Source: Acidobacteriota bacterium
Lineage (GTDB): Bacteria > Acidobacteriota > UBA6911
DNA: 64,000 nucleotides
Reading direction: 5' to 3'
NCBI GenBank assembly: GCA_963664705.1
Contig: OY761556.1
Location: forward strand, 4,960,001 to 5,024,000
Within the stretch, counting starts at the first letter, position 1, and every line of letters begins with the position of its first letter. Under the pieces are notes generated by a model that was not told the DNA's origin, did not search any database, and worked only from the letters and a program-made list of their open reading frames with translations. Both the position numbers and the translations under genes were made by a program. Below are positions 37,003-43,414 of this stretch, in pieces.

Positions 37003-38103
37003 TTATCGCCGTCTATTGGCAAAATGCCTTGAATCGCCCCATTCGCCGTAGGCAATCGTGTCTCCCGCCATAGCTATGCGGGATTCAAGGCACATTTTAC
37101 ATGCGTCGGCTTCTTCATCCAGGCATGGCTTATTTTCATACAGCAGATAATCTCTGCGATATTTCGTTGGCGTCAGATTGGGCATTATGACATTGGCACC
37201 CACCCGTAGCGCCTTTTCCCTTCCTATCGGATCGAGGGTTTGCATGGCCGTGGTTGCCGCAATGTTTATATCCTTCATCATGACGCGAAGGATCGCAATC
37301 ATCCTCAGCGACAACTGAAATCTCTCTGTTCCGGAGAGGAGCTCATTTCGATATTGATATAGCGGCGTGCCCTGGTGCTCGATATAGGGCCCCATCCCGA
37401 CCATATCCACATCCAGATCACGAAAGAAAATCAGATCATCTGCAAGATCGGATATTTTCTGAAAAGGCAAACCGATCATCACTCCAGTGCCCACCTGGTA
37501 ACCGACTTTCTTCAGCGCCGCTAGTGCATCCAGTCGTGATTGGTATCTATGGTTATCGTCGGAGGGATGAAGCCTGCGATACAGCTCCGGATTCGAGACT
37601 TCAATCCGCAAAAGATATCTGTGGGCGCCGGCATCCAGCCAGCGCTGATACGTCTCAAGCGTCTGCTCTCCCAACGAAAGCGTAACGTGCAGCTCATTCC
37701 GAACCATTCGCTGAATGGATCGGATCAGATTCTCGATTCGGGAAATGAATCCAGGGTCCTTGCGTTCGCCTGATTGTATGACAATGGAAGCAAAGCCGTT
37801 CTCCGAGGCATACCTTGCTGCCTGCAGGACTTCCTCATCTGTCATTTCATACCGCGCATTGTCCGGATTCCCGGCGCGGATACCGCAATAAAAACAGTTC
37901 TTTGCGCAATAGCTGGAATATTCAATGAGCCCGCAAAAAAAGACTTTATTGCCTACATAGCGCGCCTTGGTCTCCGAGGCTCTCTGGTAGATTGGGAAGG
38001 CATGATCCTCTCCGGCAGAAAGCAACATAACAATATCTTCTTTGGTAAGAAGATCCTTCTCAAGAATGTCCTTTATTTCCTTAAGCATGGGGAATTGTCG
38101 CAT
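37003..38103 (-). CDS. hydE: HydE-family radical SAM protein
   Basis: GLIEYSSYCAKNCFYCG, RYLLRIE, VGTGVMIGLP, GANVIMPN, YLLYENKPC; start may be 38088. Confidence 0.85.
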   Translation of the reverse strand: MRQFPMLKEIKDILEKDLLTKEDIVMLLSAGEDHAFPIYQRASETKARYVGNKVFFCGLIEYSSYCAKNCFYCGIRAGNPDNARYEMTDEEVLQAARYASENGFASIVIQSGERKDPGFISRIENLIRSIQRMVRNELHVTLSLGEQTLETYQRWLDAGAHRYLLRIEVSNPELYRRLHPSDDNHRYQSRLDALAALKKVGYQVGTGVMIGLPFQKISDLADDLIFFRDLDVDMVGMGPYIEHQGTPLYQYRNELLSGTERFQLSLRMIAILRVMMKDINIAATTAMQTLDPIGREKALRVGANVIMPNLTPTKYRRDYLLYENKPCLDEEADACKMCLESRIAMAGDTIAYGEWGDSRHFANRRR

Positions 38104-38175
38104 GGAAGTGAGTTCGCGTGAAGAGCGGCCGGCAGGAAACTTCAAACTGGATTGACCTGGCGGACCGCGTAAAGG

Positions 38176-38358
38176 CTATGAACGCTTGTCGAATCGAAAG
38201 CGCTCCTTCCGTTCAATCTGCACGACCTTTGAGTCGTGTACTGTAATTTCGACAGACCCATATCGAAGACCCTTTATGGCCTGCAGTATTTTCCGTTCCA
38301 CATTTCGATCGGACTCACCGGGAATCAGCGCCTCCATACGAGTTATTTCATCGGGCAT
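38176..38358 (-). CDS. YezD/DUF2292-family small protein
   Basis: LRYGSVEITVHDSKVVQIERKERFR; this family typically lies beside sulfur-assimilation genes. Confidence 0.88.
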   Translation of the reverse strand: MPDEITRMEALIPGESDRNVERKILQAIKGLRYGSVEITVHDSKVVQIERKERFRFDKRS

Positions 38359-38467: not shown

Positions 38468-39763
38468 CTATTCCTGAGATACCCGCAGTGCCTGATGGAA
38501 ATCCTCGCGAATGTCCTCAATGTCCTCGATCCCCACGGAAACGCGGATATACTCCGGGGTGACACCGGTTTCGATCTGCTCTTTGTCGGTCAACTGTGAA
38601 TGTGTGGTCGAGGCAGGGTGAATCACGAGAGTTTTGGCATCTCCCACATTGGCCAGGTGGCTTGCCAGGGTGACATTATTAATAAATTTGACACCGGCTT
38701 GCTGTCCGCCACGAATCCCAAATCCCAGAATTGCGCCTGGACCTTGAGGCAGATAATGCTGAGCCAGCGAGTGATGTTTATGGTTTTCAAGACCGGGATA
38801 ATTGACCCAAACAACCGACGGCTGCTTCTGAAGCCATTGCGCTAATGCAAGCGCGTTCTGAGCATGGCGCTCCATTCGCAGAGGCAAGGTCTCGAGTCCA
38901 AGCAGGAAGAGAAATGCGGCAAAAGGACTCATGCAGCTGCCCGTATCGCGAAGCCAGTTAGTTCGAGCGTGAATGATGTAAGCAAGATTTCCAAGAGGCT
39001 TGAGTGCTTCGGTGAAAATGGCACCGTGATAAGCCTCATTCGGCTGGGTAAATTCAGGCCATTTCCTGGGATTGTTCTCCCAGAAGAACTTGCCACTATC
39101 CACGATAGCCCCTCCAATGTGGACACCATGGCCGCCGATAAACTTTGTGGTCGAATAGACGACAATATCGATGCCGTGCTCAATGGGACGAAGCAAGGCC
39201 GGAGTAACCGTGTTGTCCAGAACCACCGGAAGGCCGTGCTTATGCGCAATATCTGAAATCTTTTTAAAATCAGGCACGTCATTTTTCGGATTACCAATGG
39301 ACTCCAGATAGACAAGCCGCGTTTGGTCATCAACAAGTTTGGAGATTTGTTCCGGATGGTCCGGGTCAAAAAAGCGAACCTCAATACCAAGCTTCTTCAA
39401 AGTCTGGGTGAAAAGTGTCCATGTGCCTCCATATAGGCTTGTGGATGAAATATAGTTCTGGCCTGAATGGGTGATCGTCAAGATCGCGGCAGTAATCGCC
39501 GCCTGCCCACTGGAAAAAGCCAATGCCCCGATGCCTCCCTCAAGCGCCGCTAGTCTTTTTTCAAGAACGTCGTTGGTCGGATTCATGAGTCGTGAATAGA
39601 TATTGCCGAACTCACGTAATGCAAATAAATTCGCCGCATGATCCGTGTCTTTGAAAACATAGCTGCTGGTTGCATATATAGGCACGGCACGGGCTGTAGT
39701 CGTGGGATCGGGCTCTTGTCCCGCATGCAACGCGAGGGTACTCAGTCGATAATTAGCGCTCAT
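38468..39763 (-). CDS. metY: O-acetylhomoserine aminocarboxypropyltransferase / cysteine synthase
   Basis: [23 protein letters not shown] (PLP Lys), [15 protein letters not shown]. Confidence 0.93.
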
Positions 39764-39827: not shown

Positions 39828-39866
39828 AAAAAACAAAAAGCCCGTCGAATTTGTCTCGAAGGGCTT
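39828..39866 (-). terminator. intrinsic terminator (attenuator) in the metY leader
   Basis: minus strand AAGCCCtTCGA-gacaaat-TCGAcGGGCTT-TTTGTTTTTT, between the leader ORF and the metY start. Confidence 0.85.
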
Positions 39867-39897
39867 CGTCCGGCTTTGGGATTATTGAATTCCCTGA

Positions 39898-40005
39898 TTA
39901 TGGGAAAGTGCTGCTATGCGCCCCTCCGCAATATCCTGCCGGCGTTGCCGTTTGGTGTGATAGACAACAACAGGTCAGAGTTATTTGGAAAATTGCCTTC
40001 TGCAT
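39898..40005 (-). CDS. Cys-rich leader peptide L2, [35 protein letters not shown]
   Basis: AAAGGG upstream of ATG; TGT-TGT-TGT; terminator about 31 nt after the stop. Confidence 0.75.
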
Positions 40006-40257: not shown

Positions 40258-40291
40258 AAAATACGTACATATATCTACTTTGTCAATAGAT
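40258..40291 (-). promoter_or_regulatory. sigma70-type promoter overlapped by a putative Rrf2 operator
   Basis: TTGACA (40286-40281)-N17-TATTTT; ATCTAC-N7-ATAGAT at 40273-40291. Confidence 0.72.
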
Positions 40292-40365: not shown

Positions 40366-40827
40366 CTAAATTTGATACATCAATACGCTTTTTCTTTCCT
40401 GCGCGGCCCGATCGGACCGGGCCAGCGCTTCGGCCAACGTTGTCCCGTCCAGAATATTTGAAATGGCATCACGAACATCTTTCATAACAATTCGTATCGC
40501 ACAGCTATGCTCATCCCGACATTCGGGGCATCTGGAATAGGCACTTTGGCTCACGCAGGGAACCGGGGCTAGCGGACCGTCAATTGTCCGCACAATCTGC
40601 CCTATTGTTATTTCCTCCGGTGATCTATTCAGGTAATAGCCTCCGCCCTTCCCTATTTTGCTTTCCAAGATTCCTTGATTCTTCAACTCGCGTAAGATCT
40701 GCTCCAGAAATTTTTTGGGAATGTTTTCTCTTTCGGCCAGTTCAGAAATCAGGACAAGCTTCTTGCTTGATTCACGGGCTAAAGCCAAAACAGCCAAAAG
40801 TCCATACTTCGCTTTCATTGACAACAT
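40366..40827 (-). CDS. Rrf2-family regulator (CymR/IscR-like)
   Basis: KAKYGL, IPKKFLEQIL, GKGGGY, DGPLAPVPC...CPEC...C. Confidence 0.93.
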   Translation of the reverse strand: MLSMKAKYGLLAVLALARESSKKLVLISELAERENIPKKFLEQILRELKNQGILESKIGKGGGYYLNRSPEEITIGQIVRTIDGPLAPVPCVSQSAYSRCPECRDEHSCAIRIVMKDVRDAISNILDGTTLAEALARSDRAAQERKSVLMYQI

Positions 40828-40909: not shown

Positions 40910-40941
40910 TTGACAACTTATAATCTATTATTTATATAGAT
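40910..40941 (+). promoter_or_regulatory. promoter overlapped by a putative Rrf2 operator
   Basis: TTGACA at 40910-40915; perfect ATCTAT-N7-ATAGAT at 40923-40941 over the -10 region. Confidence 0.72.
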
Positions 40942-41059: not shown

Positions 41060-41164
41060 ATGAAGTTATTGCGGCGCATTGAAATGTCACAAACTCTGCT
41101 GTACTTGAATTCCTCATCATATCTTCCTTGTTTAATACCCTGTTGTCGCTGTCCCCAGTTCTAG
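41060..41164 (+). CDS. Cys-rich leader peptide L3, MKLLRRIEMSQTLLYLNSSSYLPCLIPCCRCPQF
   Basis: AGGGA upstream of ATG; four TGT codons within 8 codons near the 3' end; 133 nt upstream of the tlpA-like gene. Confidence 0.65.
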   Translation: MKLLRRIEMSQTLLYLNSSSYLPCLIPCCRCPQF

Positions 41165-41297
41165 ATCCCAATTTTGCGCTGAGCCTCGAGCATTCAAATA
41201 GCTGGCATCCCCAATAAGTAAATTCATCAGGACCCAAATTGGAGCCTGAAAATAAAAGATTCGTTTTGTTCTCAAAACAAAGAGAGGAAGTGTCATT

Positions 41298-42518
41298 GTG
41301 AAGAAAATGTTGATGGTCCTATCGGTTTTATATTTGTTTTCCAGCCTGTCATGGGCGCAGTCTCTGACAGGTGTGTGGGATGCAACGATCAATTTCAACG
41401 GAACCATCATACCGTTCAAGCTTGAATTAGCGGGAGAAGGTTCAAAGGTCACAGGATCGTTTCTCAATGGAACCGAACGTAATACCTCGACAAGTGGCAA
41501 GTTCGAGCAGGAATCTCTGCTGCTTCGGTTCGACGACTACGGAGCGATTCTGGATGCAACGCTGAATGATACCGTCCTGGAAGGACAGTACGGTCCTTTT
41601 CAAAAAAAATTCTATTCGATTCAAGCCAGGAAGCATGCGGACTTCGCTGCGCCAAATTCCGAAGCGCCTGCGATTGGAGGCCTTTGGGAAATAGCCGGCA
41701 TCTCTGGCGCATTTGATGAAAATGCATGGCACTTAATAGTGCGCCAGTCGAATTCCTCCGTGTCTGCTGTCATTGTCCGCGCGGAGGGCGATACCGGTGA
41801 AATTGCCGGTATCTATAAAGATGGGAAGTTTACTCTTGGCCATTTCTCCGGAGCGAGGCCATCCCTTCTTGTTCTTACTCCAAAAAACGATGGGACCTTA
41901 TCTGTGCGGCTTTCTGATTTGCTTGGAAGCAGGCAATTCACAGCCTTCCGAGCGAACGAGGCGCAAGCCAGGAATTGGCCCAACTCCATCTATCCGACAC
42001 AGCCGGTACTCAATGGAAAACCCGAGTCTTTTCAGTTCCGCTTCCCGGACCTGAGCGGACGACTCATTTCCAGCTCGGATCCTCGTTTTCGTAAAAAGGT
42101 GCTCCTTGTAAATGTCTCCGGAAGCTGGAGTCCCAATTGCCATGACCAGGCACCTTTTCTTACTGATCTATACCGACGGTTTCGAAACCAGGGCTTTGAA
42201 ATCGTATCTCTGACATTTGAGGAAGCGGATCAACTTAAAGATGCATCCCGCCTGCGTGCGTTTGTCAAAAAGTTTGGAATCGAATATCCGGTGCTAATTG
42301 CAGGTGCTCCAGAAGAACGAACCGCAAAGTTACAAGCGCAGGCATCCGGCTCATCCTGGCCAACAACGCTCCTGATCGGCCGCGATGGCTTAATCCGTTC
42401 AATTCAAACCGGCTTTCCCAGCCCTGCCAGTGGCGATTTTTATGAGAAGGCAAAGGGCCAGGTCACAGCGCAGGTAGAACAGCTTCTTGCCGAAGGATCT
42501 GAATTGACCAGGAAATAG
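41298..42518 (+). CDS. exported TlpA/redoxin-family protein with SxxC active site
   Basis: signal peptide; FRFPDLSG...VNVSGSWSPNCHDQAP; WPTTLLIGRDG. Confidence 0.82.
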   Translation: MKKMLMVLSVLYLFSSLSWAQSLTGVWDATINFNGTIIPFKLELAGEGSKVTGSFLNGTERNTSTSGKFEQESLLLRFDDYGAILDATLNDTVLEGQYGPFQKKFYSIQARKHADFAAPNSEAPAIGGLWEIAGISGAFDENAWHLIVRQSNSSVSAVIVRAEGDTGEIAGIYKDGKFTLGHFSGARPSLLVLTPKNDGTLSVRLSDLLGSRQFTAFRANEAQARNWPNSIYPTQPVLNGKPESFQFRFPDLSGRLISSSDPRFRKKVLLVNVSGSWSPNCHDQAPFLTDLYRRFRNQGFEIVSLTFEEADQLKDASRLRAFVKKFGIEYPVLIAGAPEERTAKLQAQASGSSWPTTLLIGRDGLIRSIQTGFPSPASGDFYEKAKGQVTAQVEQLLAEGSELTRK

Positions 42519-42531
42519 GCTGTCAGAACGA

Positions 42532-42608
42532 GGCGCCGTACCCAAAATGGAAAGGGGAGGGTCTGCAAAACCTTAATTTTAGCGGTTCGACTCCGCTCGG
42601 CGCCTCCA
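42532..42608 (+). tRNA. tRNA-Cys(GCA)
   Basis: acceptor stem GGCGCCG/CGGCGCC, anticodon arm AGGGT-CTGCAAA-ACCTT, T arm AGCGG-TTCGACT-CCGCT, U73 discriminator, encoded CCA. Confidence 0.92.
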
Positions 42609-42627
42609 TGCTTTGAAATGAGGACAT

Positions 42628-43050
42628 ATGAAAGTAATACTATCTTTACTGTTGCTCTGTCTATTTAGCGCCTCCTGCGCTCCCAAGCGAATTCAAACCG
42701 GCAAAGTGATCGGTCCATACGCGCCAGCAATCAAAGCCGGAAAAACGCTATATATTTCCGGACAGATTGCTCTTAAACCCGGGACAACGGATTTGGTAAA
42801 CACCAACTTTGAGACAGAAGTAGTCCAGGTGCTGGAGAACCTTGTCGCCTTATTGAGGACAGCAGGGTACAAAACCTCCGACCTTGTCCAATGTACTATC
42901 TACCTTAAAGATATAAATGACTATGCAGAAGTGAATCGGATATACGGCAGCTATTTTGAAAAGGGGCGCACACCAACGCGAACCACCATCGCCGTTTCCA
43001 ATTTGCCGCGCAACGCTCGAATTGAAATTTCAGCAATCGCCTATAAATAA
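42628..43050 (+). CDS. RidA/YjgF-family protein with a lipoprotein-like signal peptide
   Basis: IGPY, LYISGQI, VLENL, PTRTT, LPRNARIEI; N-terminus MKVILSLLLLCLFSASC. Confidence 0.88.
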   Translation: MKVILSLLLLCLFSASCAPKRIQTGKVIGPYAPAIKAGKTLYISGQIALKPGTTDLVNTNFETEVVQVLENLVALLRTAGYKTSDLVQCTIYLKDINDYAEVNRIYGSYFEKGRTPTRTTIAVSNLPRNARIEISAIAYK

Positions 43051-43066
43051 AGTGGGAGAATACGTA

Positions 43067-43414
43067 ATGGCAAGCAATCCGTTACAGACTCAGGAATCGT
43101 ATCCCAGACCCATCAAAATTATTATGGTTGGGGGCCATAAGCGGAGTATGCGCAGACTGGCGGACCGCTGCCGGCAAGAAGGATGGCGAGTGGAAAATCA
43201 CTCTGGAGAAACCTATGGCCGCTGTGGTGAAGAGCTCCGATCTCAAATCGGGCGTTCCGATATTGTGGCAATAACAACGAGAGTGAATAGTCACGGTGGC
43301 ATGTTTATAGCCAAAGCCCTGGCACGCCGCCTTGGTCGAACATTTATAGTCATTCGCCGCGATAATTTTGAGGAACTCAAAGCGGCCGTGGTCGATACCG
43401 AGCGCAGATCTTAG
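43067..43414 (+). CDS. DUF2325-like protein
   Basis: IIMVGG...SDIVAITTRVNSH...AK; GGGAG upstream. Confidence 0.7.
   Translation: MASNPLQTQESYPRPIKIIMVGGHKRSMRRLADRCRQEGWRVENHSGETYGRCGEELRSQIGRSDIVAITTRVNSHGGMFIAKALARRLGRTFIVIRRDNFEELKAAVVDTERRS

Follow-up and report, generated by a model that had tools for sequence, protein, structure and literature searches.

A third tRNA-Cys gene behind a putative cysteine leader in an acidobacterial operon

A tRNA-Cys gene in the genome of an Acidobacteriota bacterium is probably the regulated product of an operon that looks cysteine-regulated. This gene, here called Cys3, is the sole tRNA gene in the 64-kb stretch of DNA that we analysed (contig OY761556.1, positions 4,960,001 to 5,024,000; hereafter the window). 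It lies between the gene for a TlpA-like protein (tlpA) and ridA, downstream of a short open reading frame (ORF) with clustered cysteine codons, leader L3. The source genome (G000; 6.9 Mb, the contig being C1) contains two further copies, Cys1 and Cys2. We propose, with a probability of roughly 0.65, that low levels of Cys-tRNA would stall ribosomes on the leader and permit read-through, and that the tRNA would then be excised and charged, which would in turn damp the leaders. Transcription of Cys3 likely begins at a promoter before L3, as part of the operon, and likely rises during a shortage of charged tRNA-Cys. An earlier note on this DNA had suggested an auxiliary tRNA-Cys tied to cysteine sensing. 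The presence of a third copy, the lack of a promoter-like site of its own and the recurrence of the pairing elsewhere speak for this suggestion, whereas the attenuation of the operon gained no support from a terminator or from folding. The stretch is one contig piece and agrees letter for letter with runs X2 and X3, possibly the source sample; run X5 spans the leader and the 5' part of tlpA and does not cover the tRNA gene.

The third tRNA-Cys gene

Cys3, a tRNA-Cys(GCA), occupies positions 42532..42608 on the + strand and was called by both ARAGORN and Rfam (RF00005, 53.1 bits; cut-off 29). It comprises 77 nucleotides (nt) including the encoded CCA, and starts 13 nt after the end of the tlpA stop codon (42518) and 19 nt before the ridA start codon (ATG, 42628). 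The complete tRNA gene wedged between these two genes is thus real, and its A-rich D-loop, G28-U42 wobble and 6-nt variable loop (AAUUUU) are as the earlier note had described them. The wobble in the anticodon stem is not distinctive, since the housekeeping copy Cys2 has G27-U43, one pair away. The GCA anticodon and a U73 discriminator are the identity elements of tRNA-Cys; Cys3 has both, together with the cloverleaf, invariant bases and CCA end of a functional bacterial tRNA-Cys.

An ARAGORN search of the whole genome identified three tRNA-Cys genes, so that the objection that Cys3 might be the only one does not hold. The Cys1 and Cys2 loci are common to the whole genus, and the 41 full-length tRNA-Cys genes inspected from its other genomes are all of standard sequence. 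The Cys3 sequence was found in only 1 of 30 genus genomes, the best match in the 29 others being 86%. Relative to the nearest genus copy, it shows about seven substitutions and three loop indels. The acceptor stem, T stem, anticodon loop, U73 and CCA are unchanged, while the wobble has been relocated and the G15:C48 pair has become A15:U48, a compensated change. Despite these differences, all stem pairs and invariant bases are intact, an outcome that seven random substitutions achieve with P ~0.001 in a neutral-decay simulation that ignored indels and took a relative, not the ancestor, as reference. Because the substitutions spare every pair and invariant base, the intact structure points to selection for a working tRNA.

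These data also bear on a different explanation, according to which Cys3 is a passenger or relic that landed by duplication, transfer or old integration, is now drifting and has no link to the leader. Its presence in a single genus genome and the A/U-rich nature of its changes would fit this, as would the neighbourhood: the named close homologues of ridA are from Ignavibacteria and Bacteroidetes, and 380 other genomes of the phylum gave no close match to it, only generic Rid matches. Moreover, 3' halves of tRNA-Cys genes are duplicated in other genomes. But the source genome itself contains no such 3'-half or att duplicate (only 3 tRNA-Cys matches genome-wide), and no integrase was found among the neighbours examined, which speaks against the integration-site relic that had been raised as an objection. 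The intact stems, invariant bases and CCA, the compensated 15:48 pair and the recurrence of the pairing with unrelated tRNA sequences (see below) also argue against a drifting copy. We therefore consider a passenger improbable.

Even less probable, in our view, is a specialised tRNA-Cys that serves as substrate of a cysteine synthase-CysRS fusion, as a poorly charged stress signal or as a non-ribosomal cysteine donor. Such a role could account for a D-loop and a variable loop unlike those of both housekeeping copies, and one of the two CysRS enzymes encoded in the genome is indeed a fusion with a PALP (cysteine-synthase-like) domain. The acceptor stem, U73 and anticodon loop, however, are identical to those of the housekeeping copies, and SepRS and SepCysS of the indirect pathway were not found above cut-off in the source genome (best matches 27.6 and 36.6 bits; cut-offs 381 and 365). 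The fusion protein (786 aa, with a full CysRS; L353:1045-3405, C1 at about 3.906 Mb) occurs besides a plain CysRS. The genome also has two full tRNA-Sec genes (C1:3078215 and 6559014), one beside selA/selB/selD-like genes (assigned by eye) and the other adjoining a transposase-like ORF.

No candidate for a promoter of its own was detected in front of Cys3. A TTGCRC-17-TACAAT-like site is present within 90 nt of 36 of the 41 housekeeping copies in the rest of the genus, and Cys1 and Cys2 likewise have high-scoring promoter-like sites. The 200 nt in front of Cys3 scored 0.3 at best, compared to a random median of 1.5. Since the pattern was drawn after viewing the genus copies, there is some circularity in the high scores of Cys1 and Cys2. 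Within tlpA no promoter score exceeded 4.5, and a consensus scan of its + strand revealed no sigma70-like site. Constitutive transcription from a promoter inside tlpA, another objection raised beforehand, thus found no support in these sequence scans.

Leader, promoter and palindromic box

The predicted cysteine sensor L3 (41060..41164, + strand) comprises 34 codons with cysteine at positions 24, 28, 29 and 31. Its peptide ends in CLIPCCRCPQF, that is, with four cysteines in eight codons. It thereby has the short ORF with clustered cognate codons that characterises classical leader-peptide attenuators. Upstream of it we read from the sequence a candidate operon promoter (40910..40938, + strand; TTGACA, 17 nt, TATATA), which the consensus scan did not report because its -10 element lacks the last T. 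This promoter is overlapped by a palindromic box, ATCTAT-N7-ATAGAT (40923..40941), a candidate operator. Both the leader and the palindrome that had been placed upstream of the tRNA gene are therefore present.

Exact matches to ATCTAY-N7-RTAGAT occur only three times in the 6.9-Mb genome, whereas by a hand estimate about one would be expected by chance, and each of them overlaps the TTGACA promoter of sulfur genes. Besides the tlpA operon, these are the metY promoter, where the second exact box (40273..40291) overlaps the TTGACA, and a sulfur-gene cluster. At the latter the box (C1:4927609) lies between a LysR gene, located at 4927702, and a sulfur-transport/cysteine-desulfurase-like cluster (labels by eye). 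Candidate regulators are a LysR protein or the Rrf2-family protein encoded next door, divergently from the operon (40366..40827, - strand; PF02082, best equivalog CymR but far below cut-off). The spacing of the box is compatible with both Rrf2- and LysR-type regulators.

Cysteine leaders are found at other genes of the genome as well. Leader L2 (36 codons, CCC) precedes metY and is followed by an intrinsic terminator, the two together spanning 39831..40005 on the - strand; L1 (52324..52407, - strand; 27 codons ending in CCC) precedes a TonB-receptor-like gene and has no intrinsic terminator. A loose genome scan returned 28 Cys-cluster short ORFs, including those before metY, cysK and the TonB-receptor-like gene. 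The one at C1:3199576 (...GCCCSL...) lies before a cysK-cysE-like operon and is without a clear terminator. The 5' untranslated stretch of L3 (40950..41059, + strand) has two motifs in common with the stretch before L1 (52408-52517), and only these two stretches score for them genome-wide (alignment, nhmmer; next best E 0.49). One of the motifs is a short palindrome, possibly a second control element.

For the earlier view that the operon appears to be cysteine-attenuated, the evidence is mixed: a cysteine leader is present and the box recurs at sulfur genes, but no terminator follows L3 and the folding tests described below were negative. On this sequence evidence the operon looks cysteine-regulated. 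Since two rho genes are present in the genome and the leader RNA is mildly C-rich, and since L3 has no intrinsic terminator, the switch would probably be a Rho-dependent read-through; the RNA is also unstructured by folding.

Leader and spare tRNA-Cys in other Acidobacteriota

We then compared the pairing of a cysteine leader with an extra tRNA-Cys gene in other genomes (G167 and G505, G352 and G587, as well as G140 and G013 are identical and were counted once each; G163 entered only phylum-wide tallies that support no claim made here; all counts are uncorrected for kinship). In the Vicinamibacterales, 14 of 401 genomes gave a match to one extra tRNA-Cys type, first seen at locus L114, and 13 of these 14 have a standard copy as well. 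After one match in a tRNA array had been set aside, 13 extra copies were left for the leader counts. Within 2.7 kb upstream, nine had a cysteine leader and seven a leader plus terminator, compared to one and none on the opposite strand. Within 1.47 kb the corresponding numbers were 6/13 and 4/13, against 2/12 and 0/12 for housekeeping copies. The arrangements vary. The tRNA gene directly follows the leader's terminator in G505, G751, G817 and G587, and comes after tlpA, with or without dsbD-N, in G137, G763 and G852. In G573 its neighbours are sbp, which ends 10 nt upstream, and cysT-cysW-cysA downstream; it precedes a cysteine synthase-JAB-ThiF cluster in G759, a cysteine dioxygenase-like gene in G712 and a sulfatase gene in G826. 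The L114 locus itself (Vicinamibacterales, G137) contains cysteine leaders, terminator, tlpA, a DsbD-N gene and, 12 nt later, tRNA-Cys. Two leaders stand there in series before tlpA (L114:2630-3010), each followed by a hairpin and a T-rich tract.

A second acidobacterial family (f48) gave a similar picture. A second tRNA-Cys type with the same D-arm signature is present in 20 of 23 genomes, all of which had been preselected for two or more loose matches. Among 15 extra copies fetched, 13 had a polycysteine leader and 12 a leader plus terminator (two and none on the opposite strand). The order leader, terminator, 1-Cys peroxiredoxin gene, tRNA was found at 12 of the 15, with near-complete genomes among those showing this clean form; in G426 the tRNA directly follows the terminator. 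The other two copies have no leader. At one locus (L319, genome G241), the 300 nt before the tRNA contain the promoter and terminator of G426, with a purine-rich stretch in place of the cysteine leader. A third kind of pairing was observed in G156, where a leader ending in seven cysteines is accompanied by a tRNA-Cys of standard type, which begins 7 nt behind a DUF1684 gene.

Cys3 does not belong to the shared auxiliary type. It is only 55-68% identical to it, compared to 79-86% for the genus copies, and it lacks the D-arm signature TGGCGAAGTGG..AACG (G12:C23). Because of this low identity we regard Cys3 as a separate recruitment into the same layout, and the recurrence of the pairing with unrelated tRNA-Cys sequences argues for selection. 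The best reading of these sequence comparisons is that leader and spare tRNA-Cys were brought together more than once. An older third lineage may be the source of Cys3, because a second tRNA-Cys in a genome of the same family (G122; L357:3768-3842) shares A15 and the AGGGU anticodon stem with it. That gene follows a terminator-like hairpin and lies 2.4 kb before the gene for a hexapeptide acetyltransferase resembling cysE. It was the one real atypical copy in a survey for extra tRNA-Cys types that covered 80 of the 107 class genomes outside the genus. The extra copies of G461, G340 and G476 turned out to be standard or tRNA-array copies, and that of G179 represents a type of its own, for which no leader was convincing.

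Several results weigh against a leader-controlled Cys3. At L3 itself, the terminator scan found no intrinsic terminator, and the leader region folds no better than shuffled sequences (z 0.23). A duplex between L3 and the ribosome-binding site (RBS) of -10.9 kcal/mol was matched by 53% of the shuffles, and in the model the accessibility of the RBS stayed nearly constant, at 0.19 without and 0.17-0.36 with a stalled ribosome. L3 thus shows no sign of the stable pairing between Cys tract and RBS, released by a stalled ribosome, that marks the mycobacterial type of attenuator. The C-over-G skew of the leader ranks only in the top 6-21% of 80-nt windows, 6% at best. The tRNA gene is not conserved at the tlpA locus: among 137 class genomes, G013 alone has another full-length tlpA, and there a leader ending in CCCC is present, but a hairpin stands in place of the tRNA. 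Among 160 tlpA-family loci, collected by alignment-based scans that are biased toward a WCPNCHD motif, 147 had no Cys-cluster ORF up to 600 nt upstream and only one, L114, had a same-strand tRNA-Cys downstream; at two near-identical loci a tRNA-Cys lies on the opposite strand. No cysteine leader is in view at the variant gene of G122. Our scripted leader test also gave hits at 8 of the 41 genus housekeeping copies, which we count as false positives; the seven apparent leaders inspected were out-of-frame cysteine runs inside cydB. Of 14 foreign leaders, only two switched their terminator in equilibrium folding, full-length equilibrium folds being a weak test of co-transcriptional switching. Finally, genomes within f48 and within the Vicinamibacterales are kin and therefore not independent. 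Synteny in relatives, which had been named as a check, consequently gives a divided answer: the tRNA is missing at the tlpA locus of G013, but the pairing of leader and extra tRNA recurs in other Acidobacteriota.

Much of this could be explained if sulfur regulation of the operon were exerted by a repressor only, with L3 being a decayed leader or a chance ORF and the tRNA induced along with the operon, but without a tRNA-sensing loop. The lack of a terminator and of a supported RNA switch at L3 is in line with such a scheme, and so are the exact operator-like box on the operon promoter and the fact that most of the 28 ORFs from the loose scan are not at sulfur genes. However, tlpA is preceded by a leader in the same position in G013 and in members of the Vicinamibacterales, in the latter with a terminator. 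Moreover, L1 and the cysK leader are equally without a clear terminator, yet L1 shares its 5' motifs with L3. We therefore judge a repressor as the sole regulator to be unlikely.

Alternatively, the tRNA could mainly serve to set tlpA apart from ridA and the following DUF2325 gene, as an element of RNA processing or stability; the earlier note had considered an mRNA processing site. Its tight fit between spacers of 13 and 19 nt and similar wedges in G573 and G137 would suit such a function. But a mere processing site is disfavoured by the varying place of the tRNA in relatives (at the start, in the middle or at the end) and by its identity: it is the Cys isoacceptor every time, whereas cleavage could be signalled by any tRNA. 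In G763 the next gene is even convergent, so that nothing co-oriented follows. Overall, this explanation seems very unlikely, and we favour Cys3 as a regulated product of the operon.

Neighbouring genes, proposed circuit and known systems

The first gene behind L3 (41298..42518, + strand) encodes an exported TlpA-like thioredoxin-fold protein of 406 aa with Pfam matches to AhpC-TSA/Redoxin; it stays below the NCBIfam cut-offs for TlpA/ResA. Instead of the CxxC active site of TlpA/ResA thiol-disulfide oxidoreductases, which is present in 118 of 120 listed homologues, it has SxxC, a single-base change read in one assembly; the G013 protein has NxxS. The window protein has one cysteine in total and that of G013 (L021) none. 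Both of these depleted proteins are encoded behind cysteine leaders, which could reflect cysteine sparing or a changed function. Behind the tRNA follow ridA (42628..43050, + strand), which encodes a Rid-family imine deaminase (PF01042; TIGR00004 above cut-off) with an N-terminal lipoprotein-like signal recognised by eye, and a gene for a DUF2325 protein (43067..43414, + strand; PF10087), the last before a convergent gene. For both the closest tlpA homologue (P0002, 66%) and a ridA homologue (P0126, 71%), the longest contig listed is 3,424 nt long and comes from the same source, a hint at linkage of tlpA and ridA in another organism. On the other side of the Rrf2-family gene lies metY/cysD (38468..39763, - strand), encoding an O-acetylhomoserine/O-acetylserine sulfhydrylase (TIGR01326 above cut-off). 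It is followed on the same strand by genes for a small DUF2292 protein (38176-38358) and a HydE-like radical SAM protein (37003-38145).

Based on these data, the following circuit can be envisaged. A repressor at the palindromic box would gate the operon promoter. When Cys-tRNA is low, a ribosome translating L3 would stall at the cysteine codons and let transcription continue into tlpA. Because L3 has no intrinsic terminator, the likeliest off-switch would be either termination by Rho acting on the C-rich leader RNA or, where translation of tlpA is blocked, polarity. The usual tRNA nucleases would cut Cys3 from the transcript and one of the two CysRS enzymes would charge it. The larger tRNA-Cys pool would then capture scarce cysteine for translation and also shut these same leaders, so that tRNA supply would be under negative feedback. 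More generally, we see about an even chance that this represents a bacterial homeostat of tRNA supply, in which a ribosome reading cysteine codons gauges charged tRNA-Cys and activates a spare gene encoding the same tRNA. The Acidobacteriota would have built it at least three times, from the shared auxiliary type, from that of G156 and from the genus-derived copy, here beside the gene for an exported thioredoxin-fold protein that lost one catalytic cysteine. Because L3 is a leader without a terminator, whose switch we infer, the window is a less clean example than its relatives, but it adds an independent origin. If true, the loop would be closed directly, since the gene for a tRNA would answer to a sensor of that tRNA's charging, and bacteria would be seen to adjust the supply of one isoacceptor as needed. 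This bears on the question why genomes keep divergent 'redundant' tRNA genes, and on how cysteine is rationed between translation and redox or Fe-S chemistry.

The known targets of classical leader-peptide attenuators such as trpL, hisL and the pheST leader are enzymes, transporters and synthetases. The proposed circuit resembles them in the cluster of cognate codons within a short ORF, and L2 and most of the foreign examples also combine leader and terminator; in contrast to them, L3 has no terminator. Cysteine-codon leaders and inducible spare tRNAs are known separately. We found no published account of a leader-controlled tRNA gene, tRNA-Cys included, in a search mostly without subscription journals and without the supplements of PMC8632094 and PMC2965389, which could list such motifs. 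As far as the accessible part of the latter source goes, almost none of the predicted acidobacterial attenuators has an assigned function (PMC2965389).

Closest in its sensor is the mycobacterial 'Cys ribulon' of polycysteine short-ORF attenuators (Canestrari et al., 10.1101/834739). There, too, short ORFs with cysteine runs precede several sulfur-linked operons and read the availability of Cys-tRNA, with no need for an intrinsic terminator. Unlike L3, however, the mycobacterial ORFs are leaderless and act by pairing with the RBS, which is unsupported for L3, and the portion of the report available to us names no tRNA gene as a target (10.1101/834739). Likewise, the uORFC-8-2 motif, a predicted cysteine-codon leader before cysS in Rhodobacterales, would control a component of Cys-tRNA supply according to the sections consulted; its target is the synthetase and it has an intrinsic terminator, whereas in the window the target would include the tRNA itself (PMC8632094). 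Spare tRNA genes that stay silent until needed are described, in the part of the source seen, for the stress-induced trn operon of Anabaena PCC 7120, which is under TrcR (PMC10272220). That operon comprises 26 genes and responds through a protein repressor to general translational stress, while the operon in the window would supply one isoacceptor in response to a codon-matched sensor.

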